In this document: piece by piece, positions 2,324-41,943 of the stretch | Position numbering within the stretch: the first letter of the stretch is position 1 | How the letters are laid out: the number at the start of each line of letters is the position of its first letter | Source: Clostridia bacterium | Lineage (GTDB): Bacteria; Bacillota; Clostridia; TANB77; CAG-508 | DNA: 64,000 nt | Assembly: GCA_017437145.1 (NCBI GenBank) | Contig: JAFSBT010000008.1 | Location: 273,893-337,892 of the forward strand | Reading direction: 5' to 3' | Notes under the pieces: model-generated | Told to the model about the DNA's origin: nothing | Seen by the model: the letters and a program-made list of their open reading frames with translations, nothing else | Databases searched by the model: none | Made by a program: the position numbers and the translations under genes

Positions 2324-2385
2324 TGTAGGGGAGAACTGTGTTCTCCCGTGCTTTGAAGGCGGGCGAACGAAGTTCGCCCCTACAG
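2324..2385. repeat. GC-rich REP-like palindromic element (TGTAGGGG...CCCCTACA, two hairpins)
   Basis: tgtaggggagaactgtgttctccc...gggcgaacgaagttcgcccctaca; GC-rich island in AT-rich intergenic DNA; same termini as 8 other copies in window. Confidence 0.75.
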
Positions 2386-2432
2386 TATTTGCAATTAATT
2401 CATACCTCAAAATTACAAATTATTTATCTTTT

Positions 2433-2690
2433 TTATTTCTTCAACTCCTCATATGCTTTTCTTACGGCTTTTGCTAACTCAGCACTACATGAAGTTGGTT
2501 TGTTACCACATTTTATATCTTTAAATAAACTTTCTATTTCTTCAACCGTTTTTCCTTCCATTGCTTTAGCTATTGCTTCTAAATTACCAGGGCATCCTCC
2601 ATGAAATTTTATGTTTTTTATAATATTATCTTCTATTTCAAAATCTATTTCACGTGAACATGTTCCTCTTGTTAAATATTTGTACTCCAT
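2433..2690 (-). CDS. small four-cysteine protein (TSCPD/TIGR03905-like)
   Basis: 85 aa MEYKYLTRGTCSREIDF...GGCPGNLEAIAKAMEGKTVEEIESLFKDIKCGNKPTSCSAELAKA; four conserved Cys pattern; assignment from memory only. Confidence 0.4.
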   Translation of the reverse strand: MEYKYLTRGTCSREIDFEIEDNIIKNIKFHGGCPGNLEAIAKAMEGKTVEEIESLFKDIKCGNKPTSCSAELAKAVRKAYEELKK

Positions 2691-2771
2691 AATATCCCCT
2701 CCAACTCCTTGATTTTACTCTAAAAAAATAAAAATAGCAAGTAAATACTTACTATTTTTGTTTTATAGAAC

Positions 2772-4772
2772 TTATTTATTTTCTTTATATACCTTTAACT
2801 GATTTATTAAATCCTGTGCTGTATATTTTTCATTATCCGTATATTTTATTGCTAGTAATGCTTCATTTTCTACTTTTCTTCCTTTTATACCATTACTTCT
2901 ATCATATTTAAATTGTTTTACTGCTGTAATTAAATCAGTTGCATCAATTTTACCATCTCCATTACTATCTCCAGTAATTACGATAGTATATACATATTCT
3001 TTTTCATCTTTTGCAAAAACAATTTTCATTCCTGTTTTCAATATATCATTTTCATTAACTTTACTATCTGCTAAATATATTTCTATTTTCTCTACATTTG
3101 ATTCAATATTACTTAAAAATTTTGCTTTAGTAGTATTTATAGGAACATGTAAAATATATCTATCCTTAACACCATACCCTTTTATCTTCATATAAAATTC
3201 CTCTTCTTCTACTTCAAATTCAACATTTTCAGTAAAGCCTTTTATACATAAATTTCTTACTTGTTTTGTAGTTGCACTTGCATTACTATTAGTACAAAAT
3301 TCTTTATATATATCTCCCCAGTAGCCTACATCCTTTGAATAAATATAACTTTCTCCCTGATTAATTTTTGCACTTTCCCAAAAAGATTGTTGTCCTTCTT
3401 TCTTACTTTCCTCAACGCCTGTATATTCAACTCCGTAATAAGTTACTCCGTCATAGTTATTTTTATATTTTACTGCTATTACAAACTTTTCTCCTGTTAA
3501 AATAACTTCATTATTTAATTTAATTGTATGATATCCTGCATCTAATACTTCAGTTTCCGCAACTTTAGTAAATTTATTAAAATCAAGTTCTCCACCAGTT
3601 CTATTAACGTAAATTTCATATGCAGAATCAACTAAATTTGCAACTGAAACCTCTGTTAATTTTTCAGGAGTGCTTGTTGTTCTTGTAAAGACATTTGCTC
3701 CATAAATGTCAGTTCCTTTTAACCCAAAAATTTCTCTAAGTCCTAACTCATCATGTTGATATAAATTATCATACTGTTTTTCCTTTACATTGTATACTCC
3801 ATAAACTGAGCTTTCAACGAATGTATCTTCATATGAAATATAAAATATTCCATCCTTTGAGAAATTTTCTCCCCATGAATTTAATACAATATAAGCTCCA
3901 TCATTTTGTGGTCTGTGTTTTTCATTAAAATTTTCTTTACTATAATTATCATCCCATCCAATAATAGTAATTTGATGGTCAGGATTTATTGTATTAATTC
4001 CTTCAAAATTATAATCATAATCACAATAATATGCTTCTGAATTAAAATAGTTTTCCTCATCACTAAAGTATTCTTCTCCTTGTGAATACATACATGATGT
4101 AACAGCTCCATATTCTTTTATATGCTCTTTAATTTCATTTCTTATTAAGTCAACTTGCTGTTTACTATAGTGACCACCATTATATTCAATATCTCCATTA
4201 TTATTTTTCCCTTTAATTATACTAGCTATTGAAATATAATCTCCTATGTATGTATCTATAATATTTCCAACTGTCGTTTTAGGTCCATATCCACCTGTAT
4301 AAAAGCTCAATGCTAGAGCTGGATTCCCTCCACCATTAATTTGTCTATTATATATTTTTGCAGAATCAGCTTCTGTTGCATTAATACTAAATTTATTATA
4401 TTCAATATCATTTTTTGTATTTTTTCCAAGAGTAGTTTCTATAATACTATTTGTACTATATATCCAACAAGTTTCACCTTCTTGTTTGTATATATTAATT
4501 TTCATATCGTCCTGTAAAGAGTATTTACTTGGTAAGTTCGTAGCTTTTAATTTATTAGATAAAAATACATTGTTTACACCATAGGTTAAAGTTTTATCAA
4601 ACCCTTTTTGATAATATGTTACAAAATTACCATTATTTGATAAAACAATCTTATCTGTATTAACATATATATCATTATAGTTAGTTTTAGCATAATTAAC
4701 AGAAATATTTAATATCAGTACTAAAAAAACTAATATTGAAATGCTTATTTTTAAAATTTTATTTTTTTGCAT
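2772..4772 (-). CDS. secreted papain-family (C1A) cysteine protease with C-terminal dockerin-like module
   Basis: 666 aa; signal peptide; catalytic motifs QEGETCWIYS (Gln/Cys), HQITIIGWDD (His), NSWGENFSKDGIFYISYE (Asn/Trp); C-terminal GDSNGDGKIDATDL calcium-loop typical of dockerin, about 60% identical to the C-terminus of the 2380-aa protein at 7293-14435. Confidence 0.8.
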   Translation of the reverse strand: MQKNKILKISISILVFLVLILNISVNYAKTNYNDIYVNTDKIVLSNNGNFVTYYQKGFDKTLTYGVNNVFLSNKLKATNLPSKYSLQDDMKINIYKQEGETCWIYSTNSIIETTLGKNTKNDIEYNKFSINATEADSAKIYNRQINGGGNPALALSFYTGGYGPKTTVGNIIDTYIGDYISIASIIKGKNNNGDIEYNGGHYSKQQVDLIRNEIKEHIKEYGAVTSCMYSQGEEYFSDEENYFNSEAYYCDYDYNFEGINTINPDHQITIIGWDDNYSKENFNEKHRPQNDGAYIVLNSWGENFSKDGIFYISYEDTFVESSVYGVYNVKEKQYDNLYQHDELGLREIFGLKGTDIYGANVFTRTTSTPEKLTEVSVANLVDSAYEIYVNRTGGELDFNKFTKVAETEVLDAGYHTIKLNNEVILTGEKFVIAVKYKNNYDGVTYYGVEYTGVEESKKEGQQSFWESAKINQGESYIYSKDVGYWGDIYKEFCTNSNASATTKQVRNLCIKGFTENVEFEVEEEEFYMKIKGYGVKDRYILHVPINTTKAKFLSNIESNVEKIEIYLADSKVNENDILKTGMKIVFAKDEKEYVYTIVITGDSNGDGKIDATDLITAVKQFKYDRSNGIKGRKVENEALLAIKYTDNEKYTAQDLINQLKVYKENK

Positions 4773-5037
4773 TTTTTCTCCCTCTTTATACTATTTTATC
4801 CTAATATAATTATATTTTTTTGTTTAATATTGTCAATGCATTTTTTTGACAACAAAAGTCTCTTAAGGCTGTATTTTTACGGATATTCGTCCTCTATCAT
4901 ATATTATTTTTTCATTACATTTATATTACATTTCCACTTTGTAACACAACTGTAATATAATCTTAATATTTTTGAAATATATTTTTTTTATAAGATATTG
5001 TATAATATAAACATACAAAAGATTTAAGGAGTTACGG

Positions 5038-6156: not shown

Positions 6157-6159
6157 AAA

Positions 6160-6192
6160 AAATGCTAGTCCTTGACTAGCATTTTTTGTGTT
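6160..6192 (+). terminator. rho-independent terminator
   Basis: aaaaatgctagtccttgactagcatttttt stem-loop plus T-run after 5038-6156 gene. Confidence 0.7.
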
Positions 6193-7255: not shown

Positions 7256-7292
7256 TTTGTTTCCTCCTTTTAATTTAAACTTTAAGTTTTAG

Positions 7293-10200
7293 CTATTTGT
7301 TTCTCCATTCTTTATACATTTTTACTTCGTTTATTAAATCTGAAGCTGTATATTCTTCCTTATCTGTAAATTTAACTGCTAATAATTTAGCGCCTTCTAG
7401 TTTTGTACCTTTTGATCCATTTGATCTTGTGTATTTAAATTGTTTTACTGTGTCTATTAAGTCATTAGCTGTAACTAATCCGTCTCCTGTACAATCTCCT
7501 GTTACTACTACAATATATGTAATAGTTTCTGTTTCATTTTTTACTATTATTCTAGTATTATCCGTTGATGCATATTTTGTATAATCACTGATTACTTCTT
7601 TATCAGCATCTTCTACTGTAGCTGTATAACCTTCCGCTAATTTATCTAGTATAGATTGTATTGCAACTTTTGGATTTATTCCCACTAAGTAATTTACACC
7701 ATTAATTGTTTTCATTCCAAATCCTGCATCATCTGTAAATCCTTTTGCTTGTTGTACAACTGTAATTGTACAAGTTGCTGTAAAGTTTCCATCTTCTGTT
7801 GTTACTGTAATTACTGTTGTTCCTTCTGCTATAGCTGTTACATTTCCTGCTGCATCTACTGTTGCTACGTTTTCATTACTTGATTTCCATATTAATGTTT
7901 TATTTGCTGCATCTTCTGGTTCAACTGTAGCAATGATTTGAGATGTTTTTCCTATTGATAAAGTCATTTCATTTGCACTTAATTTTACTCCTGTAACTTT
8001 TCCTGTTCCAGTTGTTACTGTAACCTTACATGTAGCTGTTTTATTTCCATCCTCTGTTGTTACTGTAATTGTTGCTGTTCCATCTCCTATTCCAGTTACT
8101 TTAGCAGAACCATCTTCTGTTGCTTCTACTTTAGCAACATTTTCATTATCTGATGTCCATGTAAGCTTTTTATTTGTTGCATTTTCTGGATTAATTGTTG
8201 CTACTAATATTATATCAGAATTTTTCATTATGTCAACAGATTCTTTATCTAAAGTTACACTTTCTACGGCTACAAAATCAGTAACTGTTACTTGACATGT
8301 AGCTGTTACTTTTCCATCTAGTGAGCTTGCTGTAATTGTTGCTGATCCAGCTCCAACTGCAATTACTTTTCCGTTAGTATTTACTGTTGCAACTTTTTCA
8401 TCACTTGATGTCCAAATTAATTCTTTATCTGTTGCATTATCTGGTGTTACTGTTGCATTAATTTCAGTACTGTCTCCTGAATATAAATCTAATGTTGTAA
8501 TATCTAACTCTATTTTTTCTACTGGTATTGCTTTAGTTACTACCACATTACATGTTGCTGTAAATCCACCTTCTGCTGATGTAGCTGTAATTGTTGTTTC
8601 ACCTGGCATAATAGCTGTTAATTTTCCTTTTTCATCAATTGTTGTAACTGTTGCATCACTTGATACAAATGTTACATCTTGATTTATAGCATTACTTGGA
8701 GTGAAAATAACTTTTAATGTTTCATTTTTTCCTTCTACTATTTCTAATGCTGTTTTTTCAAATGCTATACTTTCCAATGTTACATTTGACTCTTCAACAT
8801 ACACTTTACATGTTGCTGATTTTCCACCATTAATTGTTGTTACTGTAATTGTTGTTTCTCCTGCTCCTACTGCTGTAATTAAACCATTTACTACTGTTGC
8901 TACTTTTTCATTTGATGATGCCCAAACTACAGATTGTAATGAACTTGCCAATTCTTCTGGTTTAACTGTTTCATTTAATTCTGCAGTTTGTCCTTTTACT
9001 AATCTTAATAATGTTTTATCTAATTCAATTCCTGTTACTTCTGTAGAATCAATTGCTTTAACTGAAATTGTTAATGTAGCTGTTTTTCCTCCATCTGCTG
9101 TTACTGTTACTACTGCATCTCCAACACCTACTGCTTTTACTGTTCCATTTTCATCTACTGATATAACTGATGTGTTGCTTGAACTCCAGTTAGCATCTTT
9201 AACTGATGCATTATCTGGTGCAATTGTTATTAAATTAGCTAATTCTGCTTTACCACCTAAAGTTAATTCCTTAGGAGCTTCTTCTTTAAATGTTACTGAT
9301 TCAACTTCTATTTTTTCATTTACGATTATTTGACATGTTGCACTTACTTTTGCATCTTTTATTGATGTTGCTGTAATTGTAGCTGTTCCTTTTGAAATAC
9401 CTTTCATGATTCCTTTTGAATCAACTGTTACAATTGATGTATTACTTGATTCCCATTTAATTGATTCTGGTGTTGCATCTGATGGAACTATTGTTGCTAC
9501 TAAAGCTTTTTTACCATCAACATCAACATTTGCTGTTTCATTTAGTATTATAGATGTTGCAAATTTAACTTTTGTTGCTACTTTTAATTCATTTTCTGCA
9601 ATATCTTTAATTGTAACTTCACTTAAATCTTCTTTAACTTCTTTAACTAATGTGTCATTATCTTTATTTGTTTTTGTTAATGTCCATCCTTCTACTGGGC
9701 TTAGTGCTTCATTAGCTATAATAATTATTTTGATTCCATTTTCTGTTTGTTCATATTTAACTTCAGCTTTTGGTGCTGTGTTATCTACAACTAATCCTGC
9801 TTTTGTATATTCTTGTTCTGTTGGATTATTTGATGTATCTTTAAATATACCTTTTGGTAATACTAATTCAATTTCGCCTTCTTTACTTCCTGCTGTTACC
9901 GTTGCAACAAAACTTGTTTTTCCGATTTGATTTAATGTTACTGTACTTCCTGTGCTTCCTTCACCTTTTAACATAGCTGTATATCCTTGTGCATTTGTAA
10001 CTGCCTCTGAAGTAATAATTTTGAATGTAGCTTTATTTCCTGTTTTAATACTTGCTGGTGTTGCAGCTTCAATTTTAACTGTTGGTGCTATATTGTCTAT
10101 AATTCCTGAAACTTTTACAACTCCATTATATTTTGCAATATTTCCTGCTTTATCTTTTACATATATGTAGAAATCTCCATTTGATTTAACTGTATCTGTT

Positions 10201-13200
10201 AATGTTGTTGAAGTTGCTGTTTTCCAATCTTCTGTTATTAATTCTACATTTTCATTTGCACTTATTACAAATTTATCTTCTTTACTTTCTGTTGTAATTA
10301 CAATAGTTGCTGATTTTTTATCTTCACTTAGTAATGCTTCGCTAACACTTGTTATTACTGGAGCTGTGTTATCAATTGTTAATAAAAATGTTGGTATTGT
10401 CATATCATATGCTTCTGAGCACTTATTTCCTGCTTCATCAATGAACATTCCTTCAGGAATATATAATTGAACTCTACCATCTCCAAGAGCTTCTGTTACT
10501 TTTATTCCCCAAGTTTTTCCATCTTCTGATTTGGCTTCTGTCGTTAATTTCGCAGAAGCTTCCCCAAATCCATCTAAAGCAGCAAATCTAGCTTCTATTC
10601 CTTCTTGTTTTATAACTTTATCGTCAGAAGTTATTGTATAATTTGCAACTCCATCTTTGTTTATACAGTTATTATCTATACTTTCAATTGTAATTTTTGG
10701 AGCAATATTGTCAAAGCTTAATCCGGCAACTTCTTGTTTTACTGAACTATTTCCTGCTTCATCTGTGAATAATCCTTGAGGTAAGTTTAATTTAACTGGT
10801 CCATTTCCAACTCCACCTTTTACAGTGATTGTCCATGTTTTTCCATCAACTTCTGGTGCTTTTACCTCAACTATTGTACCTTTTATTCCTTCACCTGTTA
10901 ATGTAATTTGTGTTACTTTTTCTTGAACTAAATTTAACGCTTCTGATGTTTTGAATGTATATACTGCAGTTCCTTCGCTGTTTACTGTTGTTTTATCTAA
11001 TGCTGGAGCTGGTAATTCTGGATTTGTATTATCAACTCTTACTTTTGTATTAGTATAATCTTCTACTAAAACATTTCCAGCTTTATCTTTAAACATTTCT
11101 TTTGGAATTTTTAATACTACTTGGCTATTTGCTGTTCCACCTGTTAAAGTAATTGTCCAAATTTTTCCACTTCCTGTTATTTCACCTAATGTTCCTAATT
11201 TATCATCTTTTTCAAATTTATCATTTGTTATACTTGCTTTAACATCCTTATTTAACACAACATCTTCATTTGCTGTTATTGTATATGTTACTTTTCCATT
11301 TTCTTTTACTGCAGGTACAGATGCTGTAATTGTTAATGTTGGTGCTGTGTTATCAAATTCATATTCTCCTGATACTTTAACTCCGTCTTTATTTTCATTT
11401 CCTTGAACATCTTTTAATGTAGCAATTTTAACTTTTACAAAATATGTTCCTGTTAAATTACTTCCATCTACTATGAAAGAAGCAACTTTATCTCCAGCTT
11501 TATAGCTTAATTTAGCTGTTGTATATTCAGTTGGTTCCTCTTCAGCTGTTCTAACAAATGCATATCCAATGTTTGCTCCTGCTGCTAAACCTTTAAATGC
11601 ATCTGTTAATTTTATTTCAACTTTATTTCCATCTTTTTTACCAAACTCAACTCTTGGTGCTATAGCATCAACTTGAATTTTATTTTCTATATATGCTGTA
11701 TTACTTATATTGCCATATGCATCTTTAGCATGTATATAATAAGTTGCATTATTTTCATAAACATATGTAAATTCATATGTAGCTGGTTTTCCATCTATAG
11801 TTATCCATTTTGTATTTTCATCTGCTTTTTCATTTGTATCTATAACATATCCAGCAAGTCCTATTCCCACATCTGTTAATGAATATTTTACTGTTTCAGC
11901 ATATACTTGTCCATTACTAATTTTAATATCACTATTAACTACATATGATAAAGGTTGAGGTACTGGAGCTATATTATCAATCATTTTATTATCTATTACT
12001 ATCTCTTTTGCATCTGAAATGTTTCCAGCTTTATCTTTTACTGATAAATACCATGTTCCTGCGTTTTCAATTGTCGTTTCAATAGTTGCTTTTGTACCAC
12101 TTAATGTTTTCCATCCTGTTGTTACTTTAGATACATCTTTAGTCAATGAAATTATATAGCTATTTAATCCACTTTCTCCTACTTCTTCAACACTTACTTT
12201 AATTTTAGCAACTTTTCCGCCTTCGATACTTTCAATTTCTCCTATTACTGGTTTACTTGTATCAACTTCTGTTATTATTTGTGTATATACACCTATATTC
12301 CCCATTTTGTCCATTATATAAGCATATATTGTTCCATTTACTTTTATATCTTCTTTTATTGTATCTGATGTTATTAATTTCCAATTCTCATCTTTTAGTT
12401 TTGTTTGATCAGCTTCTGTTGTTATTATATATTTATATGCACCACTTGCATCATCTTTTATATTTGATAATGTAATTGTCATATAATATTTTCCAGCTGG
12501 TCTTTCTTTTCCTATAGTTGCTGTTGGTGGTGTTACATCAACCATTATATTTGCATTAGGATTTTTTTGTTTATAATCATTTATTGCAATATTTGTACCA
12601 TCATAACAAATTGTTGCTGTACAATTTTTAAATGCATCTGTTCCTATAGTTTCTATCGGAGTACCTTTTGGTACTATAATAGTTTTCATTCCTGTACAAT
12701 CATAAAAAGCTTTTTCTCCAATTATTTTTAATGATGTTGGTAAAACCAATTCTTTTAAAGCTATACATCCAGAAAATGCCTCTTTTTGAATTTCAGTTAC
12801 TGAATTTGGCATTGTAACTGCTGTTAATTTTGTATTTCCTTTAAAAGCACCTTCTCCAATTATTCTAACTGGTAGTCCATATATTTTATTTAGAAGGGTA
12901 ATTTGTGTGATATTTCCTTTGTTATCTTTAAAGCTATTTATTGTAGCGTATCCATTTTCTCCTTCAGTTAATGTATATATTATATATGCTGGAGATTGTG
13001 CAATTATTGGATTATCTTTTGTGCAATATACTATTAAATTTTTATTGCATGGTATATTTGAAGAATCAAATATAGTTGTTCCAACTGTTGTTAATCCTTG
13101 TGGAACTACTGCAACAGTTAAATTAGAGCATCCTAAAAATGCATTATTTCCTATACTTGTAACTGTTTTAGGTATTTCTACACTTTTTAAAGCAGTTTTA

Positions 13201-14435
13201 TAAAATGCTTGAGCACCTATTGAAGTTAATTTGCTTGGCATATTAACTGTTTCTAATTTTGTACAATTATAAAATACATTAGTACTTAATGATGTTAACT
13301 CATTTGATAAAACAACTTTATTTAAAGAAGTACAATCTCTAAAAGCAGCATTTCCTATTGATGTTACATTACTTAAATTTGCTTCTACTAATGAAGAATA
13401 ACCAAAAGCTAATTCTCCTATATTTTTTACACTTGTAGGTAAATTTAAACTTGAAAGTTTTGTTTTATAAAAAGCATATTCCTCTATTGTTGTTACCTTC
13501 TCGCCTATTAAAACTTCATTTAAATTTGTACAAGCTCTAAACATAGAAGCTGGTATTACTGTAATATTAGATAATTTAGGAAATTTCTCTAATGAAGTTC
13601 CAGCAAATGCCCATTTCCCAATTTTTGTTACACTTGCTTCATTTTCAAAACTAACTGTTTTTAATCCGTTAAAACAATAAAAAGCATGTGAATCAATATT
13701 TGATACTGATTTTCCTATTGTAACTTTTGCATCATTTGTAACGTTTCTCGCAAATGCATATGTTGCTATTGTACTTACAGAAGCTGGCATAGTAAAAGTA
13801 GTTGTACTTTTTGCTAATGGAAATTTTAATAATGTAGTTTTTGCTTTATTATATAAAACTCCATCTTGACTTGAAAATGCTGTATTATCACTATCTACCT
13901 CTATTTTTGTTAATGCAGTACAAGGTTCAAATGATAAAGCACTCATATTTGTTACATATTTACCTATTTTAATTCCTGTAATACCTGTAATTTTTGGTGA
14001 TACTTCTCCTGTTTTTTCATCTGCAGTATAGTCAACTAATCCGTTATTTTTATCAGCATTAAATCCAAATTGAGTTACTTTATAAACGTATTCATTCCAG
14101 TTAGTAAATAAATTTTTTGGAATTCTTATTTTATCTGGTATAGTAACTGTTCCTTTTAAAGTTGAAGCATTTACAAATCTAAAAGAAACTTCTCCTGCAC
14201 CATCAAGTAAGCTATCTTCTTTTAAAATAGTAGCTTTCCACTTAATGCCATTAGTTTCTCCTACATAAACTTTGCCTACTTCGTCATTCCACCAATCGGG
14301 ATTATCTGCATCAAAAACATCTTGATCAATATCCCATACAACTTCTGCTCTGGCAGTTCCTCCTGATATTAATAAGAAAACACAGGCAAGTATTCCTATT
14401 AATAACGCTTTAAAAATTGCACTCCTCTTTAGCAT
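7293..14435 (-). CDS. giant surface protein: signal peptide, BspA-type leucine-rich repeats, about 9 Big_2 Ig-like domains, C-terminal dockerin-like module
   Basis: 2380 aa single ORF; repeated IGxxAFxxCxxLxxIxIPxSVxxIG LRR units; repeated ~85-aa units ...IxWxSSNxxVATVDxxGxVTAxxxGxxTITATxxDGxxxATCxVxV; C-terminus TGDCTGDGLVTANDLIDTVKQFKY... shares module with protease at 2772-4772. Confidence 0.85.
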   Translation of the reverse strand: MLKRSAIFKALLIGILACVFLLISGGTARAEVVWDIDQDVFDADNPDWWNDEVGKVYVGETNGIKWKATILKEDSLLDGAGEVSFRFVNASTLKGTVTIPDKIRIPKNLFTNWNEYVYKVTQFGFNADKNNGLVDYTADEKTGEVSPKITGITGIKIGKYVTNMSALSFEPCTALTKIEVDSDNTAFSSQDGVLYNKAKTTLLKFPLAKSTTTFTMPASVSTIATYAFARNVTNDAKVTIGKSVSNIDSHAFYCFNGLKTVSFENEASVTKIGKWAFAGTSLEKFPKLSNITVIPASMFRACTNLNEVLIGEKVTTIEEYAFYKTKLSSLNLPTSVKNIGELAFGYSSLVEANLSNVTSIGNAAFRDCTSLNKVVLSNELTSLSTNVFYNCTKLETVNMPSKLTSIGAQAFYKTALKSVEIPKTVTSIGNNAFLGCSNLTVAVVPQGLTTVGTTIFDSSNIPCNKNLIVYCTKDNPIIAQSPAYIIYTLTEGENGYATINSFKDNKGNITQITLLNKIYGLPVRIIGEGAFKGNTKLTAVTMPNSVTEIQKEAFSGCIALKELVLPTSLKIIGEKAFYDCTGMKTIIVPKGTPIETIGTDAFKNCTATICYDGTNIAINDYKQKNPNANIMVDVTPPTATIGKERPAGKYYMTITLSNIKDDASGAYKYIITTEADQTKLKDENWKLITSDTIKEDIKVNGTIYAYIMDKMGNIGVYTQIITEVDTSKPVIGEIESIEGGKVAKIKVSVEEVGESGLNSYIISLTKDVSKVTTGWKTLSGTKATIETTIENAGTWYLSVKDKAGNISDAKEIVIDNKMIDNIAPVPQPLSYVVNSDIKISNGQVYAETVKYSLTDVGIGLAGYVIDTNEKADENTKWITIDGKPATYEFTYVYENNATYYIHAKDAYGNISNTAYIENKIQVDAIAPRVEFGKKDGNKVEIKLTDAFKGLAAGANIGYAFVRTAEEEPTEYTTAKLSYKAGDKVASFIVDGSNLTGTYFVKVKIATLKDVQGNENKDGVKVSGEYEFDNTAPTLTITASVPAVKENGKVTYTITANEDVVLNKDVKASITNDKFEKDDKLGTLGEITGSGKIWTITLTGGTANSQVVLKIPKEMFKDKAGNVLVEDYTNTKVRVDNTNPELPAPALDKTTVNSEGTAVYTFKTSEALNLVQEKVTQITLTGEGIKGTIVEVKAPEVDGKTWTITVKGGVGNGPVKLNLPQGLFTDEAGNSSVKQEVAGLSFDNIAPKITIESIDNNCINKDGVANYTITSDDKVIKQEGIEARFAALDGFGEASAKLTTEAKSEDGKTWGIKVTEALGDGRVQLYIPEGMFIDEAGNKCSEAYDMTIPTFLLTIDNTAPVITSVSEALLSEDKKSATIVITTESKEDKFVISANENVELITEDWKTATSTTLTDTVKSNGDFYIYVKDKAGNIAKYNGVVKVSGIIDNIAPTVKIEAATPASIKTGNKATFKIITSEAVTNAQGYTAMLKGEGSTGSTVTLNQIGKTSFVATVTAGSKEGEIELVLPKGIFKDTSNNPTEQEYTKAGLVVDNTAPKAEVKYEQTENGIKIIIIANEALSPVEGWTLTKTNKDNDTLVKEVKEDLSEVTIKDIAENELKVATKVKFATSIILNETANVDVDGKKALVATIVPSDATPESIKWESSNTSIVTVDSKGIMKGISKGTATITATSIKDAKVSATCQIIVNEKIEVESVTFKEEAPKELTLGGKAELANLITIAPDNASVKDANWSSSNTSVISVDENGTVKAVGVGDAVVTVTADGGKTATLTISVKAIDSTEVTGIELDKTLLRLVKGQTAELNETVKPEELASSLQSVVWASSNEKVATVVNGLITAVGAGETTITVTTINGGKSATCKVYVEESNVTLESIAFEKTALEIVEGKNETLKVIFTPSNAINQDVTFVSSDATVTTIDEKGKLTAIMPGETTITATSAEGGFTATCNVVVTKAIPVEKIELDITTLDLYSGDSTEINATVTPDNATDKELIWTSSDEKVATVNTNGKVIAVGAGSATITASSLDGKVTATCQVTVTDFVAVESVTLDKESVDIMKNSDIILVATINPENATNKKLTWTSDNENVAKVEATEDGSAKVTGIGDGTATITVTTEDGNKTATCKVTVTTGTGKVTGVKLSANEMTLSIGKTSQIIATVEPEDAANKTLIWKSSNENVATVDAAGNVTAIAEGTTVITVTTEDGNFTATCTITVVQQAKGFTDDAGFGMKTINGVNYLVGINPKVAIQSILDKLAEGYTATVEDADKEVISDYTKYASTDNTRIIVKNETETITYIVVVTGDCTGDGLVTANDLIDTVKQFKYTRSNGSKGTKLEGAKLLAVKFTDKEEYTASDLINEVKMYKEWRNK

Positions 14436-15295: not shown

Positions 15296-15321
15296 GCGGA
15301 CGACCAATGGTCGCCCCTACA
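15296..15321. repeat. GC-rich REP-like element (single unit)
   Basis: gcggacgaccaatggtcgcccctaca; hairpin gacc-aat-ggtc plus CCCCTACA end. Confidence 0.7.
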
Positions 15322-15330
15322 TTATCTCCA

Positions 15331-20608: not shown

Positions 20609-20638
20609 TGTAGGGGTCGGTCAAGACCGAGCCCTACA
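20609..20638. repeat. GC-rich REP-like element
   Basis: tgtaggggtcggtcaagaccgagccctaca, near-perfect palindrome with TGTAGGGG/CCCTACA ends. Confidence 0.75.
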
Positions 20639-24974: not shown

Positions 24975-26213
24975 TTAAGCTGTTTTTTTACCTACCATTT
25001 TAATACATATGAACATCCCTATAATGTATAAAGCTAAAGTTGCAATTAGTATATAATCATATGTTCTATTTGTTAAGCTTAATATTAATTCAGACATATT
25101 ATTTCCTGTTAATCCAGCAATTCCCCAAGCAGAAAGTGCTAATCCATGAAGTGAGCTTATTTTATCCATTCCAAATCTTTCTGAAAGTAGAGCAGGCAAT
25201 GTTGAAAATCCTCCTCCATATCCTGAATTAACAACTACTAATAATACTATTGTTATAATTCCAAAAACAATTGAACTAGCTCCATTTGAAATTGCAAATG
25301 TTGCTAATGCTATTGCAGTAATTATCATACAGCTTAAGAAAATTATTTTATAAACAGTATTTCTTTCTTTCATTTTATCAGAAAGTGTTGAAAACCCTAT
25401 TCTTCCTAATGCATTAAATGCTGCTGTAACTGATGGAACAATACTTATGATTGTTCCTAAGATAGCTGTTCCCAAAAATGCAACACCTAAAATTTGTTTT
25501 TCATAAGTAATTAAAGCTAATCCACAATGTATGTTAATAAAGAACATTAACCATATTCCTAAGAATGTTTTATCTTTAAACATTTTTAGCATATTTCCAT
25601 CTTTCTTGTCATCATCCTTTTCAATCCAGCCATCTGGTTTTTTCAAAAGTAAATGCCCTACAAACATCATAATGAAATATGTTGCACCTAGAATATAAAA
25701 CATTTTTTCTATACCTAAATTACCTTGTATAAATTCCATTATTGGTGTAGCTATTGCTTTAGCAAGCCCAAATCCCATAATTGAAATTCCTGTTGCAAGA
25801 CCTTTTTGTTCAGAAAACCATAACATTAAAGTTTTTACTGGTGTTAAATATCCTATACCAAGTCCAATTCCCATTATACATCCATAACATAAAAAGATTC
25901 CTAAAAGTGCGATTATACCAGATGTAAATTGAATAAATAGTCCTGTTCCTATCATCCCTAAAGAAAAACATATACATGCTATTAAAGATGATTTATGAAT
26001 GTTTTTTTCAACCATTTTTCCTGCAAAAGCAGCAGACATTCCTAAAAAGAAAATTGCTAATGAAAATGCCCAACCTACTGCAAAAGTGCTCATCCCTATT
26101 TTATCAGCTATTGCTTCTTTAAAAGTTGACCAACAATATACTGTTCCTATTGAACAATGTAAAAGTAATGCCGGTATTGCAGCTCTTGTCCATTTGTTAT
26201 TTAAAATGCTCAT
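24975..26213 (-). CDS. MFS transporter, oxalate/formate antiporter (OFA)-like family
   Basis: 412 aa, 12 predicted TM, N-terminal MSILNNKWTRAAIPALLLHCSIGTVYCWSTF typical of OFA/YhjX subfamily. Confidence 0.75.
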   Translation of the reverse strand: MSILNNKWTRAAIPALLLHCSIGTVYCWSTFKEAIADKIGMSTFAVGWAFSLAIFFLGMSAAFAGKMVEKNIHKSSLIACICFSLGMIGTGLFIQFTSGIIALLGIFLCYGCIMGIGLGIGYLTPVKTLMLWFSEQKGLATGISIMGFGLAKAIATPIMEFIQGNLGIEKMFYILGATYFIMMFVGHLLLKKPDGWIEKDDDKKDGNMLKMFKDKTFLGIWLMFFINIHCGLALITYEKQILGVAFLGTAILGTIISIVPSVTAAFNALGRIGFSTLSDKMKERNTVYKIIFLSCMIITAIALATFAISNGASSIVFGIITIVLLVVVNSGYGGGFSTLPALLSERFGMDKISSLHGLALSAWGIAGLTGNNMSELILSLTNRTYDYILIATLALYIIGMFICIKMVGKKTA

Positions 26214-26532
26214 TTTTCTATCCCCTTTTATTTAAAATACAAGGATTATTTTACCACTAAATATAACATTATTCAAACTTTTTCAGGAAAATTTTTGAGA
26301 ATTTTTAATCTTCCGTAAGCAATATATATTCTCCCATAAATGAGATGATTTGAAATAATAAATTAGTCGGACACCAAATAAGAATAGTGGCAGCATTACT
26401 TCGATATGCTGAAAATTTTAAAATTTTCAGTATAAATTAAAAAGCTAAAATAATTAATTTTTGACAAATGAGTACTTCATTTTCAAAAATTAATATTTTA
26501 GCTTGTGTTTACAGAATTTATTTTTTAAAATA

Positions 26533-26569
26533 TTCTCTGGAGCACGGGCGATGAAACATCGCCCCTACT
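26533..26569. repeat. GC-rich REP-like element
   Basis: ttctctggagcacgggcgatgaaacatcgcccctact; shares 5' ttctctg.agcacgg with copy at 28181. Confidence 0.7.
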
Positions 26570-26610
26570 TATAGATTAAATTCATTGTATATTAAAAATA
26601 ATACATATTT

Positions 26611-28110
26611 TTATTCTTCTATTTTAACCTTTTCTAAATTTTTTTTACTAGGCTCATTTAATAAATTACCTTCATAGTCATACCTTGAACCATGACAAGG
26701 GCAATCCCAAGTTTTTTCTAAATTATTCCATGAAAGTTCACATCCTAAATGCGCACAATATGGTTTCACAGCATATACTTCATCTTCGGATTTTTTATAA
26801 ATTCCGAGCTTCATTCCTTTATAATTTACTACTCCACCTGTTCCAATTTTTAAATCTTCATATTTTATAATTGGAGGAGTTATTTTATTTAACACTAACG
26901 AATGTGCTGTTTGTTTTAACATGTTACCTATTTCTTTTATGTTTTTAATTGGCTCTACTCTTGTAGACGAGTATATATCTTCGTATACGCTATCAACACC
27001 TAAAATTTTATCACTAATTATTTTTGCAGCCACATAGGAGGTTGTCATTCCCCACTTTTTAAATCCAGTAGCAACAAATACATTTGGCATTAACTTTGAG
27101 TACTCGCCTATATATGGTACTTTATCTAAAGTTATACAATCTTGTGTGTTCCATCTATATAGTATGTTTGCTTTAGAATATAGCATTTTTATATAATTTT
27201 CTATGTTTTTGTAATTATCATCTAACTTACTATTATTATCTCCTGACTTATGTTTAGAGCCACTGACTAATAAAAGTCTTTTATCTCCATACTTAGCTGT
27301 TCTAAAAGAAGTTACAGGTTCTTCAGCAGATATATACATTCCTTGGAATAAATCTCTTTTTATGTCTGCCGCAACTACATATGATCTGTCTTGATACATT
27401 TTCATAAAATATACACCCGGAAAGTCTATTATAGGATAATGAGTAGTAATTGCAACATATTTAGATTTCACACTTCCATTTTCAGTATAAGTTTTATAGT
27501 GTTGACCTTCTTTTTTCACATCCACTACTTTAGAATTTTCATAAATACAATCAGCTGGCAATTTTTCTAAAAGTCCTTTTGCATATTTTATAGGATGAAA
27601 TTGAGCCTGGTTAGGAAATTTTATAGCACCTAGTGTTTTAAATGGTAAATCAACTTCATTACAAAATTCTGCTTGGAATCCAAGAGCTTTTACCATTTCA
27701 GTTTCTGTTACTATCTCTTGTACTTTCTCTTCTGAACAAGTATATACATATGCATCTTGTTTTTCGAAATCACAATCGATATTTTGTGACTTTATAATAT
27801 ATTCGATTGAAGAAATCGCATTTTCATGAGAATATAAATATTTTTGAGCAAATTCTTTTCCAAAGTTTTGTATTAAGTAACTATAAAACAATCCATGTTG
27901 GCTCGTAATTTTAGCTGTTGTATTAGCTGTTGTACTTGATAAAACTTTATCTTTTTCTAATAAAACAAATTTAATTCCTTGTTGATGTAAAAGGTATGCA
28001 AGAGTAACACCAACCATACCTGCACCAACAATGGATACTTCTGTTTCAATATCATTATCTAATTTTGAATAATCTTTTGTATTTGTACTTTCTAACCAAT
28101 AAGAATTCAT
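26611..28110 (-). CDS. FAD-dependent oxidoreductase with C-terminal Rieske [2Fe-2S] domain (YhfW-like)
   Basis: 499 aa; N-terminal GAGMVG FAD fold; C-terminal CAHLGC...CPCHGSRYD Rieske motif. Confidence 0.8.
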   Translation of the reverse strand: MNSYWLESTNTKDYSKLDNDIETEVSIVGAGMVGVTLAYLLHQQGIKFVLLEKDKVLSSTTANTTAKITSQHGLFYSYLIQNFGKEFAQKYLYSHENAISSIEYIIKSQNIDCDFEKQDAYVYTCSEEKVQEIVTETEMVKALGFQAEFCNEVDLPFKTLGAIKFPNQAQFHPIKYAKGLLEKLPADCIYENSKVVDVKKEGQHYKTYTENGSVKSKYVAITTHYPIIDFPGVYFMKMYQDRSYVVAADIKRDLFQGMYISAEEPVTSFRTAKYGDKRLLLVSGSKHKSGDNNSKLDDNYKNIENYIKMLYSKANILYRWNTQDCITLDKVPYIGEYSKLMPNVFVATGFKKWGMTTSYVAAKIISDKILGVDSVYEDIYSSTRVEPIKNIKEIGNMLKQTAHSLVLNKITPPIIKYEDLKIGTGGVVNYKGMKLGIYKKSEDEVYAVKPYCAHLGCELSWNNLEKTWDCPCHGSRYDYEGNLLNEPSKKNLEKVKIEE

Positions 28111-28180: not shown

Positions 28181-28217
28181 TTCTCTGTAGCACGGACGAC
28201 CAATGGTCGCCCCTACA
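28181..28217. repeat. GC-rich REP-like element
   Basis: ttctctgtagcacggacgaccaatggtcgcccctaca. Confidence 0.75.
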
Positions 28218-38360: not shown

Positions 38361-40229
38361 TTACAATTCAACCAAATTATATTCCATATTTGCTTTTCCT
38401 AATATTTCCTTCTCCCTATTAGAACATGTAAAAATAATAATTTGATTGTTTTTATAATTTTTATTTATATATTTTAAAATATTTTCCAATCTTTGATTAT
38501 CATAATATGCGAATGCTTCATCTAAAATTATTGGCATACTCTCTGTACTTATTTCTGACATTGCTGATAATCTTAAACTTAGATATAATTGATCAATCGT
38601 TCCTAAACTTAATGCTTTACATTCTATGTACTCACCATTTTTAAGTTCAACTACTAGTCCTCTATCGTCTGTAAAATTACATTTCTTATATGCTCCTTCA
38701 GAAATCACATCTACTATTTTAGATAATTCTTCTGTGAATTTCGGAGTAAATTTTTGTTTCATTTCAGAGTAAGATTCCTCAAGAGTTTCTTTTGCTATAT
38801 CCATTAATTCTTTTAATTTTAATAATTCTTCTTTTTGTTCATTCCAATGCTCAAATTCTTCATCTACTTTAGCCTCTTGCGCAACTTTTTTTAATATACT
38901 ATCTTTTTCAACTTCTAAAGTATGTAATTTAAATTTTGTTTTGTTTATTTCCTCTTCTAAACTTGCTATTTCCTCATTAGTAAAATCCTGTTTTAATAAA
39001 TATTTAATTTCATCAATAGCAATTTTATTTTTATATTCTGCAATGATATTTTCTTCGTTTTCTGTGACTTTTTCTTTTATGATCTTATTTAAACTTTCTA
39101 TTTCTTGTTTTCTTTTTTTAGAGTTTTCTTCTAAAATTTCTATTTCATATTTAATTTTTTTAGTTTGATTGTTTTTTTCTTTATATTTCTTTTTATTTTT
39201 AATTGAATCAATGATTAAATATACTATATAAAACATGACAATTCCACTAGCTGTATACATTAAATATGGATTTAAATCTACAAAAAGTGTTATAACATCA
39301 AATACAATCAAAATAGCAAATATAATCATTTTAACCATTTTGCTCATACCTTTTGTGCTGTTCTCTAAATCATTATTTTTTATTTTATTTTTATAAATTT
39401 CTATTTTCTCATCATCTTCTAGTTTCAAATTGTTATTTATATTTATTTTTTCTTTTTCTAAATTTAGTGATTCCTTCTTGTTTTTTATGTCTTTAATAAT
39501 ATTTACTTTAATTTCTTTTTCTTGTAAATTATTTTTTATATTATCTATTTGCTGATTTAAGTATTCAGTTTGTTCACTATCATTTTCAAAGCTGTTTTTT
39601 TCATTTTTTAAATATTCTAATTTTTCATTTACTATATTTAAAGGTCTTCCTGTAGTTCTTTCTGTTCCTATTTTTTCCAGCATTTCTTTGTTTAATTTAT
39701 CCATTGCTTTATTAAAAGAAACATTATCCTCTCCTGTAGCAAGTAAATTTGTAAGTTTTTGTATTAAGACATTTTGACCTTTTTCATCTAAGGTTACTCC
39801 TTGTTGTTCTACTAATGTTGTGTTTGAAAATAGGGTTTCGTCAATTTTTGTTTGTTCCAAAAAGAATTCATTACCTCTATTTTTATCAACATTAAAAGTT
39901 TTAGAAATATCTTCACCCTTTGAATTATATATTTTAGGATTTTTCTTTGAAAACTCCCTAAAAACTTCAAAGTGCTCACCATTATCTAATTCATATTTTA
40001 TTTTACCTGAATATTCTTTTTCTCCCCATGGTAAATATTTTTCAAAATCTGAAATATCTTTACCATTTTTATTTTTAGATGCACCGTAAAACATTGAAGA
40101 TATAAATTTAAACAATGTTGTTTTTCCCGCTTCATTATCGCCATAAATTAAATTTATATTATCTTTTAAGTTAATTTCTTTATCTGCTAATTTTCCAAAT
40201 CCATTAATTTTCATGTAATTTATTTTCAT
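38361..40229 (-). CDS. SbcC-like AAA ATPase (SMC-fold, YhaN/SbcE-like) with two internal predicted TM helices
   Basis: 622 aa; Walker A GDNEAGKTTL near N-terminus, long coiled-coil, Walker B/D-loop ILDEAFAYYD at C-terminus; hydrophobic stretch MIIFAILIVFDVITLFV...IVMFYIVYLIID mid-protein. Confidence 0.65.
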   Translation of the reverse strand: MKINYMKINGFGKLADKEINLKDNINLIYGDNEAGKTTLFKFISSMFYGASKNKNGKDISDFEKYLPWGEKEYSGKIKYELDNGEHFEVFREFSKKNPKIYNSKGEDISKTFNVDKNRGNEFFLEQTKIDETLFSNTTLVEQQGVTLDEKGQNVLIQKLTNLLATGEDNVSFNKAMDKLNKEMLEKIGTERTTGRPLNIVNEKLEYLKNEKNSFENDSEQTEYLNQQIDNIKNNLQEKEIKVNIIKDIKNKKESLNLEKEKININNNLKLEDDEKIEIYKNKIKNNDLENSTKGMSKMVKMIIFAILIVFDVITLFVDLNPYLMYTASGIVMFYIVYLIIDSIKNKKKYKEKNNQTKKIKYEIEILEENSKKRKQEIESLNKIIKEKVTENEENIIAEYKNKIAIDEIKYLLKQDFTNEEIASLEEEINKTKFKLHTLEVEKDSILKKVAQEAKVDEEFEHWNEQKEELLKLKELMDIAKETLEESYSEMKQKFTPKFTEELSKIVDVISEGAYKKCNFTDDRGLVVELKNGEYIECKALSLGTIDQLYLSLRLSAMSEISTESMPIILDEAFAYYDNQRLENILKYINKNYKNNQIIIFTCSNREKEILGKANMEYNLVEL

Positions 40230-41293
40230 AAAACACCTAATCCTATTTCAATTACTTTTTTTATTTGTTCTTCTGTATATTCATTATTATTTAATTTTTC
40301 TAAACATTTCTTCACAAAAATTCCTTTTAAATTATTCTGCTTTGATATAGCTTCTATGTCATATGGAACTTCCGAAAAATCTTTTATTTTAAGAATATTT
40401 TCTTGATTTATTAATTTTTGTATGTTGTTTAAATTAAGTTGAAAATTTTTATATCCTTTTAAAATAATTTTATACATATTATTATAATCTAGAAGTAAAG
40501 AATTTATTATTTCTACAAGCTCCTCCTCAGAATTTATTGTTGTAATATCAAGTTCTTTTTCTTCAAATATTCTTTTATCTAATTTTATAAAATCTATTTT
40601 TAATTTATTTTTTTCCAATTCAACATCTAGCATTCCATGTTCCCCCAATTCGTCAAATCCGCACGAAATTGCAGAACCAGGATAAATAATATTGGTATTT
40701 TCTTGATAATTAGCTTTATGAATATGTCCTAATGCAATATAATCAAAACCAAGTTTTTTTAAGTCTCCTTCACTTATTGGATTATAACTTGCATCTATTG
40801 CTTTACTAAAATTTAATGACCCATGAACTATTAAAACATTTATTTTATTTTTATTTTTTATTTGTATGTTTTCAATCCCTGAATTTTTACAATAAAAATC
40901 TGTAAATCCATAACCATATATATCAACATCTTCAAATTCATATCTTCTTATTTCAGAATCAAAAATATATACATTTTCATTCCATTTAAAAGTATTATAA
41001 AAAGAATTTTTTAAAAATGGATCATGATTTCCAGGGGTTATAAAAATTTTAGTATCTGGAATTGTTTTAAATAAGTTATTCACATATTCTATTGTGGATA
41101 ACTTTATATATTTATGTTCATATAAGTCTCCTGCAATAAAGAAATATGGAATTTTATTTTGCTTTATATATTCTATTGCATCTTTAAAAGCAGACCTTTG
41201 TTCAAGTCTGCGTAAATCTCCTAAATCTTTTTTCATTGCTAGCACTTTAAATGCATTATCCAAATGCATATCTGCTAAATGTATAAATCTCAT
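40226..41293 (-). CDS. SbcD-like metallophosphoesterase (DNA repair exonuclease subunit, YhaO/SbcF-like)
   Basis: 355 aa; MRFIHLADMHLD, GDLYEH, GNHD, GHIH calcineurin-like phosphoesterase motifs; start overlaps stop of ATPase gene. Confidence 0.7.
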   Translation of the reverse strand: MRFIHLADMHLDNAFKVLAMKKDLGDLRRLEQRSAFKDAIEYIKQNKIPYFFIAGDLYEHKYIKLSTIEYVNNLFKTIPDTKIFITPGNHDPFLKNSFYNTFKWNENVYIFDSEIRRYEFEDVDIYGYGFTDFYCKNSGIENIQIKNKNKINVLIVHGSLNFSKAIDASYNPISEGDLKKLGFDYIALGHIHKANYQENTNIIYPGSAISCGFDELGEHGMLDVELEKNKLKIDFIKLDKRIFEEKELDITTINSEEELVEIINSLLLDYNNMYKIILKGYKNFQLNLNNIQKLINQENILKIKDFSEVPYDIEAISKQNNLKGIFVKKCLEKLNNNEYTEEQIKKVIEIGLGVL

Positions 41294-41303
41294 AAAAATT
41301 CTC

Positions 41304-41873
41304 CTATTTATTTTCTAATTGCTTTATTAATTCATTCCTTGTAATTATTGTATTCACATGCATTGATTTACCTTTTTTTAATTGTAATTCAATTTTTTTA
41401 TCTAAAACATATAAAACCGCTTCATCTAAATTAATATCTAAAATTTTATTTAATTTTCCAATATCTTCAAAGTTTCTATCTTCGCTTGTCCTGTCTGCAA
41501 CAAATAAAATTTTTGCAAATATGTTCATATCAGGCATTCCTGTAGTATGCGCTTCTATAGCTTGTCCCATTTCTGGTGTAAATCCAAAATATTTTATTGA
41601 AAAATGTGCTCCTATTTTTGCATGTAATAAAGTAGTATTTTCTAATTCCATTTCATCAATTTGTATACGATTATTTTTCACATATTCTAATTTTTCTTTA
41701 GGTTCTAGCTCTTTTGCAATATCATGTGCTATACCTATTTTTTGCATTGTTTCAATATCAACTTCATACATATTAGCAATCTCTGCACATCTTTTCATTA
41801 CACATATACTATGATTGTATCTTTTTTCTGAAAGTTTACTTTTTACAACCTCTCTAATTTCTTCTAGGTTCAT
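41304..41873 (-). CDS. yqeK: HD-domain protein YqeK (bis(5'-nucleosyl)-tetraphosphatase)
   Basis: 189 aa; RYNHSICV...HDIAKE HD motif, typical YqeK length. Confidence 0.7.
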   Translation of the reverse strand: MNLEEIREVVKSKLSEKRYNHSICVMKRCAEIANMYEVDIETMQKIGIAHDIAKELEPKEKLEYVKNNRIQIDEMELENTTLLHAKIGAHFSIKYFGFTPEMGQAIEAHTTGMPDMNIFAKILFVADRTSEDRNFEDIGKLNKILDINLDEAVLYVLDKKIELQLKKGKSMHVNTIITRNELIKQLENK

Positions 41874-41916
41874 AGGAACACCTACCTTTCTATAAAAACA
41901 AATAAAACTTTTAACA

Positions 41917-41943
41917 GACGGACGACCACCGGTCGCCCCTACA
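41917..41943. repeat. GC-rich REP-like element
   Basis: gacggacgaccaccggtcgcccctaca. Confidence 0.7.

Follow-up and report, generated by a model that had tools for sequence, protein, structure and literature searches.

A probable REP/RAYT system of the TnpAREP subclass 2.4 type in a low-GC uncultured Clostridia bacterium

What are the short GC-rich hairpins that recur between the genes of a very AT-rich Clostridia bacterium, and how are they related to a small transposase-like gene that carries one of them in its own reading frame? The question is raised by a 64,000-nucleotide (nt) stretch of the genome assembly GCA_017437145.1 (contig JAFSBT010000008.1, positions 273,893 to 337,892), hereafter the window. 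A preliminary description had listed nine loci of hairpins with TGTAGGG and CCCTACA ends and had joined them with the open reading frame (ORF) at 37829-38299 into a system of repetitive extragenic palindromes (REPs) and a REP-associated tyrosine transposase (RAYT). All nine loci are GC-rich palindromes with TGTAGGG or its complement in a window of 26.9% GC, and the recurring cores quoted for them are present. The palindromes have the properties of GTAG-tagged REPs at the sequence level, and the ORF matches TnpAREP by sequence and predicted fold. We consider it very probable that the window holds a REP/RAYT system, consisting of a 'REPtron' and dispersed REPs, of the TnpAREP subclass 2.4 or RAYT group 4 type in a low-GC uncultured Clostridia bacterium. 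The basic phenomenon has already been published and the system belongs to a described class; its assignment to subclass 2.4 is based on the matching of motifs and REP types.

The hairpin units and the TnpAREP-like protein

The window contains 13 hairpin units at the nine loci. Oriented with the foot at the 5' end, they are +2324, -2384, -15321, +20609/-20638, -26569, -28217, +31885, -31935, +37668, -37739, -38167 and -41943, where +20609/-20638 is one self-complementary palindrome. Each unit spans 23-26 nt and follows a single plan, in which a T-GTAG foot leads into a stem starting with GGG, a loop, a return stem ending in CC and a final G. Stems of 8 bp enclose a 3-nt loop and stems of 9 bp a 2-nt loop (loops range from 2 to 4 nt over the units); the stem starts with GGG (GGA in two units) and ends with CCC or TCC. 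GTAG is present in all 13 units with the stem immediately 3' of it, and it is preceded by T in 12 of them. Except for this T, no conserved cleavage dinucleotide (CT) is evident 5' of the foot. At least seven stem types are found among the 13 units.

The heptamer TGTAGGG was observed 13 times in the window against an expectation of 2.6, a number that none of 100 shuffles attained. The occurrences at 25656 and 54655 form no hairpin and were rejected as chance matches. When a unit was strictly defined as GTAG followed by a GC-rich stem of at least 7 bp and a loop of 2-6 nt, the search returned 12 units from the window and a mean of 0.06 from 50 Markov controls. Folded as single-stranded DNA (ssDNA), the units give z-scores of -2.7 to -7.8. 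In nine aligned units with 8-bp stems, 97% of the cells are paired, compared with 80% after column shuffling and 33-46% in slid controls. Compensatory changes on both sides affect four of the eight stem pairs, with a covariation score attained by none of 500 shuffles; the compensated stems are AGAAC/GTTCT, CGAAC/GTTCG, CGACC/GGTCG, CGATG/CATCG and CGTGC/GCACG. Furthermore, one stem position is a G.T pair in five of the nine aligned units. This pair forms on the GTAG strand only, which suggests that folding of the GTAG strand is favoured. A gathering-threshold Rfam scan of the whole window found tRNA-Arg and tRNA-Pro only and no family that covers the hairpins.

Three loci (2324, 31885 and 37668) consist of two inverted REPs with a short spacer, as in the REPINs of Bertels and Rainey 2011 (PMC3116915), in which the doublet is the unit that replicates. 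Like REPINs, the doublets at 2324 and 31885 each fold into one long ssDNA hairpin, whereas that at 37668-37739 forms separate hairpins. Singletons or a double-foot palindrome, in contrast to REPINs, make up five of the eight intergenic loci. The preliminary description had further regarded 49068-49140 and 51328-51362 as degenerate relatives. Both were rejected as REPs; they are unrelated hairpins that lack a GTAG foot and any similarity to the family and are unique among the sequences compared. The hairpin at 49060-49150, just past an O-antigen-ligase-like gene, has 27-bp arms, folds as ssDNA at -24 kcal/mol (z -6.7) and has neither a GTAG foot nor a second copy in the window or any fetched locus.

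What does the ORF at 37829-38299 encode? The gene lies on the minus strand and specifies a 156-residue protein, predicted to be an HUH-Y1 ssDNA nuclease. The protein matches the Pfam profile Y1_Tnp (E 6e-7), has REP_Tyr_transpos as its best NCBIfam hit (65 bits) and matches the sequence of Escherichia coli TnpAREP in PDB entry 4er8 (E 7e-7), to which it is ~26% identical over the aligned core. Its AlphaFold2 model (pLDDT 84) ends with the Y helix, and the top Foldseek match of the model is 4er8_A, TnpAREP bound to a REP hairpin (E 2.6e-7, TM 0.66), followed by TnpA of ISDra2 and of IS608. The catalytic motifs are intact: NHVH (PNHVHL; H85 and H87), WQ (IWQK; W120 and Q121) and the tyrosine motif EYIINNIANW (Y141). 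The GTAG-contacting residues W94, Q95, E100, H101 and R104 of the E. coli protein align to W120, Q121, E126, H127 and R130 of the window protein (PMC6006769). The C-terminus is reached 15 residues past the catalytic tyrosine, with no C-terminal tail domain. By modelled fold and by residues, the ORF is a RAYT/TnpAREP gene with an intact HUH/Y1 nuclease. The identical protein carries the NCBI label 'MAG: transposase [Clostridia bacterium]', and the window is matched by a 155-kb metagenome scaffold.

The RAYT gene is present in a single copy in the window and is surrounded by housekeeping genes (sbcCD-like, RF-1 and ftsA/Z), directly between an sbcC-like gene and the RF-1 gene. Five close homologs (62-70% identity; loci L206-L210) have gene neighbourhoods entirely different from window positions 36565-40229: the gene lies after minC, between a sortase-substrate gene and maf, or among glycosyltransferases. 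Its position is thus not conserved among these relatives, though it appears to be a single-copy resident in each.

How would such a protein act on the hairpins? By analogy with E. coli TnpAREP and the IS608 and ISDra2 TnpA proteins, RAYT would bind the folded hairpin and the GTAG foot on one strand of ssDNA; the E. coli enzyme acts strand-specifically on a folded single strand (Ton-Hoang 2012, PMC3333891; Messing 2012, PMC3479197; Corneloup 2021, PMC8266576). The foot and stem base are constant and the upper stems are free but compensated, a combination that fits recognition of the foot plus a shape. The GC skew of the plus strand is -0.17 throughout, and the minus strand is the G-rich strand and the sense strand of almost all local genes. 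The lagging-strand template is the likely substrate, given that GTAG lies on the G-rich strand in all seven singleton units, two of which are outside the window. RAYT would cut and rejoin DNA through a phosphotyrosine intermediate, and both REPs and inverted REP pairs (REPINs) would be created, copied or deleted in this way. We infer catalysis, the strand used, current mobility and mobilisation by RAYT from this analogy.

The REP inside the RAYT gene and its partner

Why does a REP reside in the coding sequence of the RAYT gene? The copy at 38143-38167, on the minus strand, is read in frame as TGT AGG GGC GTG CAT TGC ACG TCC, which yields C-R-G-V-H-C-T-S. These residues form the tip of a beta-hairpin located between beta1 and helix A, and residues 41-50 have a mean pLDDT of 64, the least confident part of the model core. 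The in-ORF copy has its CGTGC/GCACG stem in common with the REP at 37668-37693, in the inverted orientation. Because this inverted same-stem partner lies 136 nt past the RAYT stop, the in-ORF copy is the left arm of the REP pair of the gene, and the partner is the right arm of the REPtron. The RAYT gene carries its own cognate pair; one REP occupies a surface loop of the ORF in frame, and its inverted partner is located just downstream.

The same arrangement recurs in related genes. Homologs of 60-72% identity have CRGVHCTS, CRGEHCSS, CRGDHWSS or CRGGNLPS at the site of the in-ORF REP, and homologs of 149-150 residues are without the insert. At the DNA level, four of the five close homologs (L206, L207, L208 and L210) have a GTAG hairpin at codons 41-48 and a same-stem inverted REP past the stop, located 16-40 nt beyond it or within a C-terminal extension. 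In L209, the homolog without the insert, the same inverted pair flanks the ORF just outside it.

We also fetched 80 metagenomic RAYT homologs of 32-64% identity, 76 of which could be evaluated. In-ORF REPs are present in 53 of the 76 (both sites in 24, site 2 only in 27, site 1 only in 2) and absent from 23. The in-frame REPs of the 24 two-site homologs are always in the order plus, then minus. Site 1 lies 14-25 codons past the beta1 motif, with GTAG always on the coding strand; for site 2, which is always inverted, the distance past HUH is 10-14 codons in 23 genes and 41 codons in the remaining one, L181. The segment bracketed by the two REPs is the HUH-coding part, between two fixed loops. 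The 27 homologs with site 2 only often have a double-foot palindrome or a doublet there. The two in-ORF copies have an identity of at least 87% in 20 of the 24 two-site genes, while from gene to gene the stems are widely different; the in-ORF stem type reappears in the flanking DNA of its contig. The peptides that the REPs encode are variable, and use is made of both stop-free frames (V-G... and C-R-G...), which indicates that the constraint acts on the DNA hairpin. Two of the metagenomic homologs (L169 and L173) have four tandem in-frame REPs at the first site, encoding VGTTAPGRP four times, and one inverted REP at the second; they represent a REP array growing inside a RAYT gene.

We rejected the idea that the in-ORF REP, or its pairing in homologs, is an undescribed feature, since in-frame insertion is a hallmark of TnpAREP subclass 2.4 (Quentin 2018). 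This subclass corresponds to RAYT group 4 and is characterised by NH[IFV]H, WQ and YIxNNP motifs and by the lack of a tail domain (Quentin 2018, BMC Genomics 19:475, PMC6006769; Bertels 2017, PMC5581495). Its REPs are of the 'long canonical' type, with three G-C pairs at the stem base, and of the 'double-foot' type; in-frame REPs within tnpAREP, generally between HuH and Y, are called its 'remarkable and unique feature', and it abounds in both Cyanobacteria and Bacteroidetes and occurs in 'various phyla' (PMC6006769). The window system agrees with that account in its NHVH, WQ and YIINN motifs, missing tail domain, GGG/CCC stem base, double-foot palindrome at 20609-20638, in-frame REP and low copy number. 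The published REPs GTAGGGGCGTATTGCATACGCCC (8-bp stem, 3-nt loop) and GTAGGGACGCACTGCGTGCGTCC match its foot and stem format. The window system differs from the same account in its host, an uncultured Clostridia bacterium of ~27% GC, in the insertion between beta1 and helix A rather than between HuH and Y, with the partner displaced past the stop, and in the replacement of the YIxNNP proline by isoleucine.

Comparison with other known systems places the window REPs in the same broad family. GTAG-tagged REPs have an unpaired GTAG foot, a short GC-rich stem of 5-13 bp that is preserved through compensatory changes, a short loop and G.T pairs, and each genome has many dispersed copies, most of them extragenic (Di Nocera, De Gregorio and Rocco 2013, PMC3733652). 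The window REPs resemble them in the unpaired foot, the 6-9 bp GC-rich stem, the 2-3 nt loop and the frequent G.T pairs, in occurring as singletons and outward-foot dimers, for the most part downstream of coding regions and between genes of the same direction, in occasional in-frame intragenic copies and in the linkage to a tyrosine transposase gene. Unlike those REPs, they are GC-rich repeats in 27% GC DNA, and their stem diversity within one region is unusual. The hosts in that survey are Proteobacteria, Cyanobacteria, Chloroflexi and the PVC group, with no Firmicutes listed, and Bertels 2017 mentions Clostridia solely for RAYT group 1; both accord with the earlier remark that low-GC clostridia rarely feature in descriptions of such systems. 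The REP and bacterial interspersed mosaic element (BIME) system of E. coli with its TnpAREP has the protein fold and the catalytic and GTAG-contacting residues in common with the window system (PMC3333891, PMC3479197, PDB 4ER8), as well as a gene bracketed by inverted REPs. E. coli TnpAREP differs in that it belongs to subclass 2.2, has longer REPs with a bulge, contacts GTAG with a C-terminal tail and has no REP inside its gene.

Spread beyond the window and competing explanations

Are the hairpins confined to the window? The preliminary description had named absence beyond it as grounds for doubting a REP family, and these grounds were not borne out. Contigs that share the end genes of the window, one of them from a second sample, provided ~10 kb on each side (~20 kb in total) and contain four further units, and many related metagenome-assembled genomes (MAGs) have one and the same REP on several contigs. 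Contigs with the exact RAYT gene of the window reach 405 kb (samples SAMN15829930 and SAMN15829894). One flank unit lies between rplI and dnaB, and a doublet lies between the convergent recR and a glycosyltransferase gene. Another unit (18881-18903 of flank contig L201, ~8 kb beyond the window start) is a CGACC-type REP in frame in a tilS-like gene (Pfam ATP_bind_3), where it adds RVGATIGRPL; it is the second in-frame intragenic REP in the window organism. In total, window and flanks hold 17 units in ~84 kb, a density that would extrapolate to hundreds per genome.

One variant, the 24-mer TGTAGGGGCGACCNNTGGTCGYCC, occurs in no fewer than 118 blocks of 8 kb, which belong to many named assemblies and have GC contents of 27-68%. 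Among the matches listed, to which the following statements on the 24-mer refer, the hosts are mostly rumen and gut Clostridia MAGs, and a single isolate, Bengtsoniella intestinalis BP47G, is also present; in several MAGs the copies are spread over 4-6 contigs, and of 43 copies in blocks with less than 45% GC, 37 are outside long ORFs. The species of the window is absent among these matches, and no listed block overlaps the window. Exact copies of the 24-mer were also seen in L008, L009, L019, L029, L030, L036, L073, L074, L082, L086 and L091. The MAGs concerned, of which several derive from termite gut, bear the labels Zoogloeaceae, Burkholderiales, Coriobacteriales, Bacteroides, Betaproteobacteria, Azoarcus, Gammaproteobacteria, Chitinispirillales and Dehalococcoidales. 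The presence of the 24-mer in MAGs labelled as other phyla could be due to horizontal transfer or to contamination during binning. We hold it to be unlikely that the REP pair in and around the RAYT gene is functional, in self-regulation or as a master copy, or that the shared 24-mer results from horizontal spread. Horizontal spread, if true, would run contrary to the view that REP/RAYT inheritance is almost only vertical. If the pair is functional, the embedded REPs would serve the system and not simply be insertions that it tolerates. The RAYT gene could then be a substrate of its own product, with excision between the REPs as a self-limiting or reversible off-switch or with feedback via hairpins or long-range mRNA pairing; the pair could also be a protected 'master copy' by which enzyme and repeat are kept matched.

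The position of the units relative to genes, which were labelled from Pfam, bears on what the hairpins are. Eight of the nine window loci are extragenic, and the copy in the RAYT gene is the exception, as had been reported. The accompanying statement that the copies often lie between convergent or tandem genes holds in its second half: six loci are tandem, two divergent and one intragenic, and none in the window is convergent. The six tandem loci are among minus-strand genes, usually 10-60 nt past the upstream stop (TSCPD>HD, coaE>UDG, DAO/Rieske>MFS, sigE>rubrerythrin, RAYT>RF-1 and ddl>HD), and the two divergent loci are amidohydrolase/tRNA-Pro and DAO/alr. Since most copies lie just past an upstream stop on the sense strand, they are probably transcribed and could act as hairpins at RNA 3' ends. 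This raises the reading that the units are ordinary intrinsic (rho-independent) terminators, alike through a shared need for GC-rich stems. Being GC-rich stem-loops, six loci of which are downstream of a gene on its sense strand, they have the appearance of terminators, and T runs lie on both sides of the palindrome at 20609-20638. We nevertheless find this reading barely credible. The conserved unpaired TGTAG foot is foreign to terminators, no T/U tract follows the intergenic units, and a terminator scan of 24-43 kb flagged other hairpins and none of the intergenic units, with the in-ORF copy weakly flagged. Moreover, two loci are between divergent gene starts, in-frame copies lie inside ORFs, and identical sequences tied to the RAYT gene occur across genomes whose blocks range from 27 to 68% GC among the matches listed.

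The Y1_Tnp fold of RAYT, its structural matches to IS608 and ISDra2 TnpA and the hairpins that flank its gene would also be expected if an autonomous insertion sequence (IS) of the IS200/IS605 or DDE type were the source of the units, as its ends or as miniature inverted-repeat derivatives (MITEs), with the ORF as an active IS transposase. This is very improbable on several grounds. Only one copy is present in the window, among housekeeping genes and with no tnpB nearby, and its tyrosine motif is YIxNN (YIINN), whereas IS200 transposases have Y---Q (PMC6006769, Table 1). The hairpins that flank the gene are inverted copies of each other rather than subterminal hairpins on the same strand, and one is inside the ORF, so that the RAYT gene cannot transpose as a unit. 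In addition, TnpAREP rather than IS transposases gives the best matches in both sequence and structure, and the units measure 23-26 nt and are without terminal inverted repeats or target duplications.

The preferred reading of a REP/RAYT system is itself opposed by several observations. The REP_Tyr_transpos score of 65 is below the model cutoff of 80. The tyrosine motif has the consensus YIxNNP in 26 close homologs, and isoleucine replaces its proline in the window RAYT; V or I is found at this position in a few homologs. Nearly all genes are on the same strand, and replication and transcription are therefore inseparable as causes of the strand bias. The analogy for mobilisation is drawn from E. 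coli, Stenotrophomonas and Marinomonas enzymes of other subclasses (PMC8266576). Finally, across the ~84 kb the CGTGC stem of RAYT is found only at 38143-38167 and 37668-37693, and the dispersed stems are CGACC, CGAAC, AGAAC, CGATG, TCGGTC and CAGGTC. Given this mismatch, RAYT may not mobilise the dispersed REPs, or its recognition may be limited to the foot and stem base; the enzyme may be tolerant, a further RAYT may be present, or the dispersed copies may be older ones kept for other reasons.

The mismatch leads to the possibility, which we regard as doubtful though deserving of weight, that the dispersed REPs are fossil or host-maintained hairpins (for mRNA 3'-end protection, supercoiling or protein binding) that the window RAYT no longer moves, and that the action of RAYT is restricted to its two cognate REPs or its function is a different one. 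This explanation overlaps with a REP/RAYT system and differs from it only on present-day mobility. In its favour, CGACC, the commonest dispersed type, is nearly unchanged in dozens of species whose RAYT-flanking REPs differ (among the matches listed), the L209 RAYT is flanked by the GCGATT type, yet the dispersed copies are GCGACC, and most copies lie just past stop codons on the sense strand. However, the RAYT-linked stem is the same as the dispersed stem in L206, L129, L148, L185 and L175, and diverse stems with a constant foot are the tolerance expected of a protein that reads foot and structure; TnpAREPs differ in their reliance on foot, stem and loop (PMC8266576). A second RAYT may also exist elsewhere in the genome.

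Individual loci and biological meaning

The nine loci differ in their composition and surroundings. The REPIN-like doublet at 2324-2385 has outward GTAG feet and a 13-nt spacer; its units are TGTAGGGGAGAAC TGT GTTCTCCC (+2324-2349) and TGTAGGGGCGAAC TTC GTTCGCCC (-2384-2359). It lies between the stop of a TSCPD gene (2433) and the start of an HD gene (2253), both on the minus strand, and folds as ssDNA at -20.2 kcal/mol (z -7.0). The single REP at 15296-15321 on the minus strand, TGTAGGGGCGACC ATT GGTCGTCC G, is 10 nt past the coaE stop and upstream of the UDG gene, in a tandem of minus-strand genes. The 'double-foot' palindrome at 20609-20638, TGTAGGGGTCGGTC AA GACCGAGCCCTACA, folds at -13.3 kcal/mol (z -7.8, ssDNA) in the divergent region between the start of an amidohydrolase gene (20528, minus) and tRNA-Pro (20740, plus).

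Two single REPs lie at either end of the DAO/Rieske gene (26611-28110, minus). The minus-strand copy at 26533-26569, with the head AGTAG, is AGTAGGGGCGATG TTT CATCGCCC with the 3' tail GTGCTCCAGAGAA and is 42 nt past the stop of this gene. The other, at 28181-28217 on the minus strand, is TGTAGGGGCGACC ATT GGTCGTCC and has the same tail (GTGCTACAGAGAA), which provides a second CTACA foot; it occupies the divergent region between the DAO/Rieske gene start (28110, minus) and the alr start (28304, plus). The tail CCGTGCTNCAGAGAA (CCGTGCT[A/C]CAGAGAA; 26533-26545 and 28181-28193) was found only in these two copies in the window and ~200 loci searched, and was rejected as a family feature. The common tail suggests that one copy derived from the other, flank included. 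Adjoining the REP at 26533 is an AT-rich near-perfect palindrome at 26436-26510 (AAGCTAAAATATTAATTTTTGA ... TCAAAAATTAATTATTTTAGCTT), located in a long spacer upstream of the MFS transporter gene and 94% identical over 69 nt to positions 4919-4985 of L094, from another species (Clostridiales bacterium SIG349). It has no Rfam match, and an E-value scan of 26200-26620 gave noise only; it may be an operator or another small repeat.

The doublet at 31885-31935, with 9-bp stems, consists of TGTAGGGGTCGGTC TT GACTGACCC (+31885) and TGTAGGGGCAGGTC TT GACCTGCCC (-31935), folds as ssDNA at -17.7 kcal/mol (z -5.4) and lies between the stop of a sigE-like gene (31996) and the start of the rubrerythrin gene (31790). 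A promoter-like site is located downstream of it at 31826-31854. The REPtron right arm at 37668-37693 on the plus strand, TGTAGGGACGTGC ATT GCACGTCC GC, is 48 nt upstream of the RF-1 gene start. It is joined across a 20-nt AT-rich spacer to a degenerate CGACC-type REP at 37714-37739 on the minus strand, TGTAGGAGAGACC ATT GGTCGTCC, which has the head GTAGGAG and two stem mismatches and lies 90 nt past the RAYT stop. A similar, near-consensus promoter-like site (TTGAAA-17-TATAAT) occurs at 37779-37807 on the minus strand, between the RAYT stop and this doublet; if it is used, the 5' leader of the RF-1 gene would include the doublet at 37668-37739. The last single REP, at 41917-41943 on the minus strand, is TGTAGGGGCGACC GGT GGTCGTCC G, 17 nt past the ddl stop (41960) and upstream of an HD gene (41873). 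Unrelated to the REPs, a minus-strand ORF at 7293-14435 encodes a giant surface protein of 2380 residues, of a kind typical of gut anaerobes, which contains BspA-type leucine-rich repeats together with seven Big_2 domains.

What does the system mean for these organisms? It places a textbook feature of Gram-negative bacteria and Cyanobacteria, REPs with a domesticated tyrosine transposase, in uncultured and very AT-rich gut Clostridia, which the published REP surveys considered here do not list. One REP variant is common to many mostly clostridial MAGs irrespective of host GC among the matches listed. The ~25-nt GC islands explain odd GC spikes and the 'CRG.../VGA...' and '...APT' peptide inserts, seen here in RAYT and the tilS-like protein, and are probably the cause of some contig breaks in such MAGs. 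The stereotyped and co-varying REP pair within many RAYT genes is a compact system in which the lasting match between a single-strand nuclease and its repeat can be studied.

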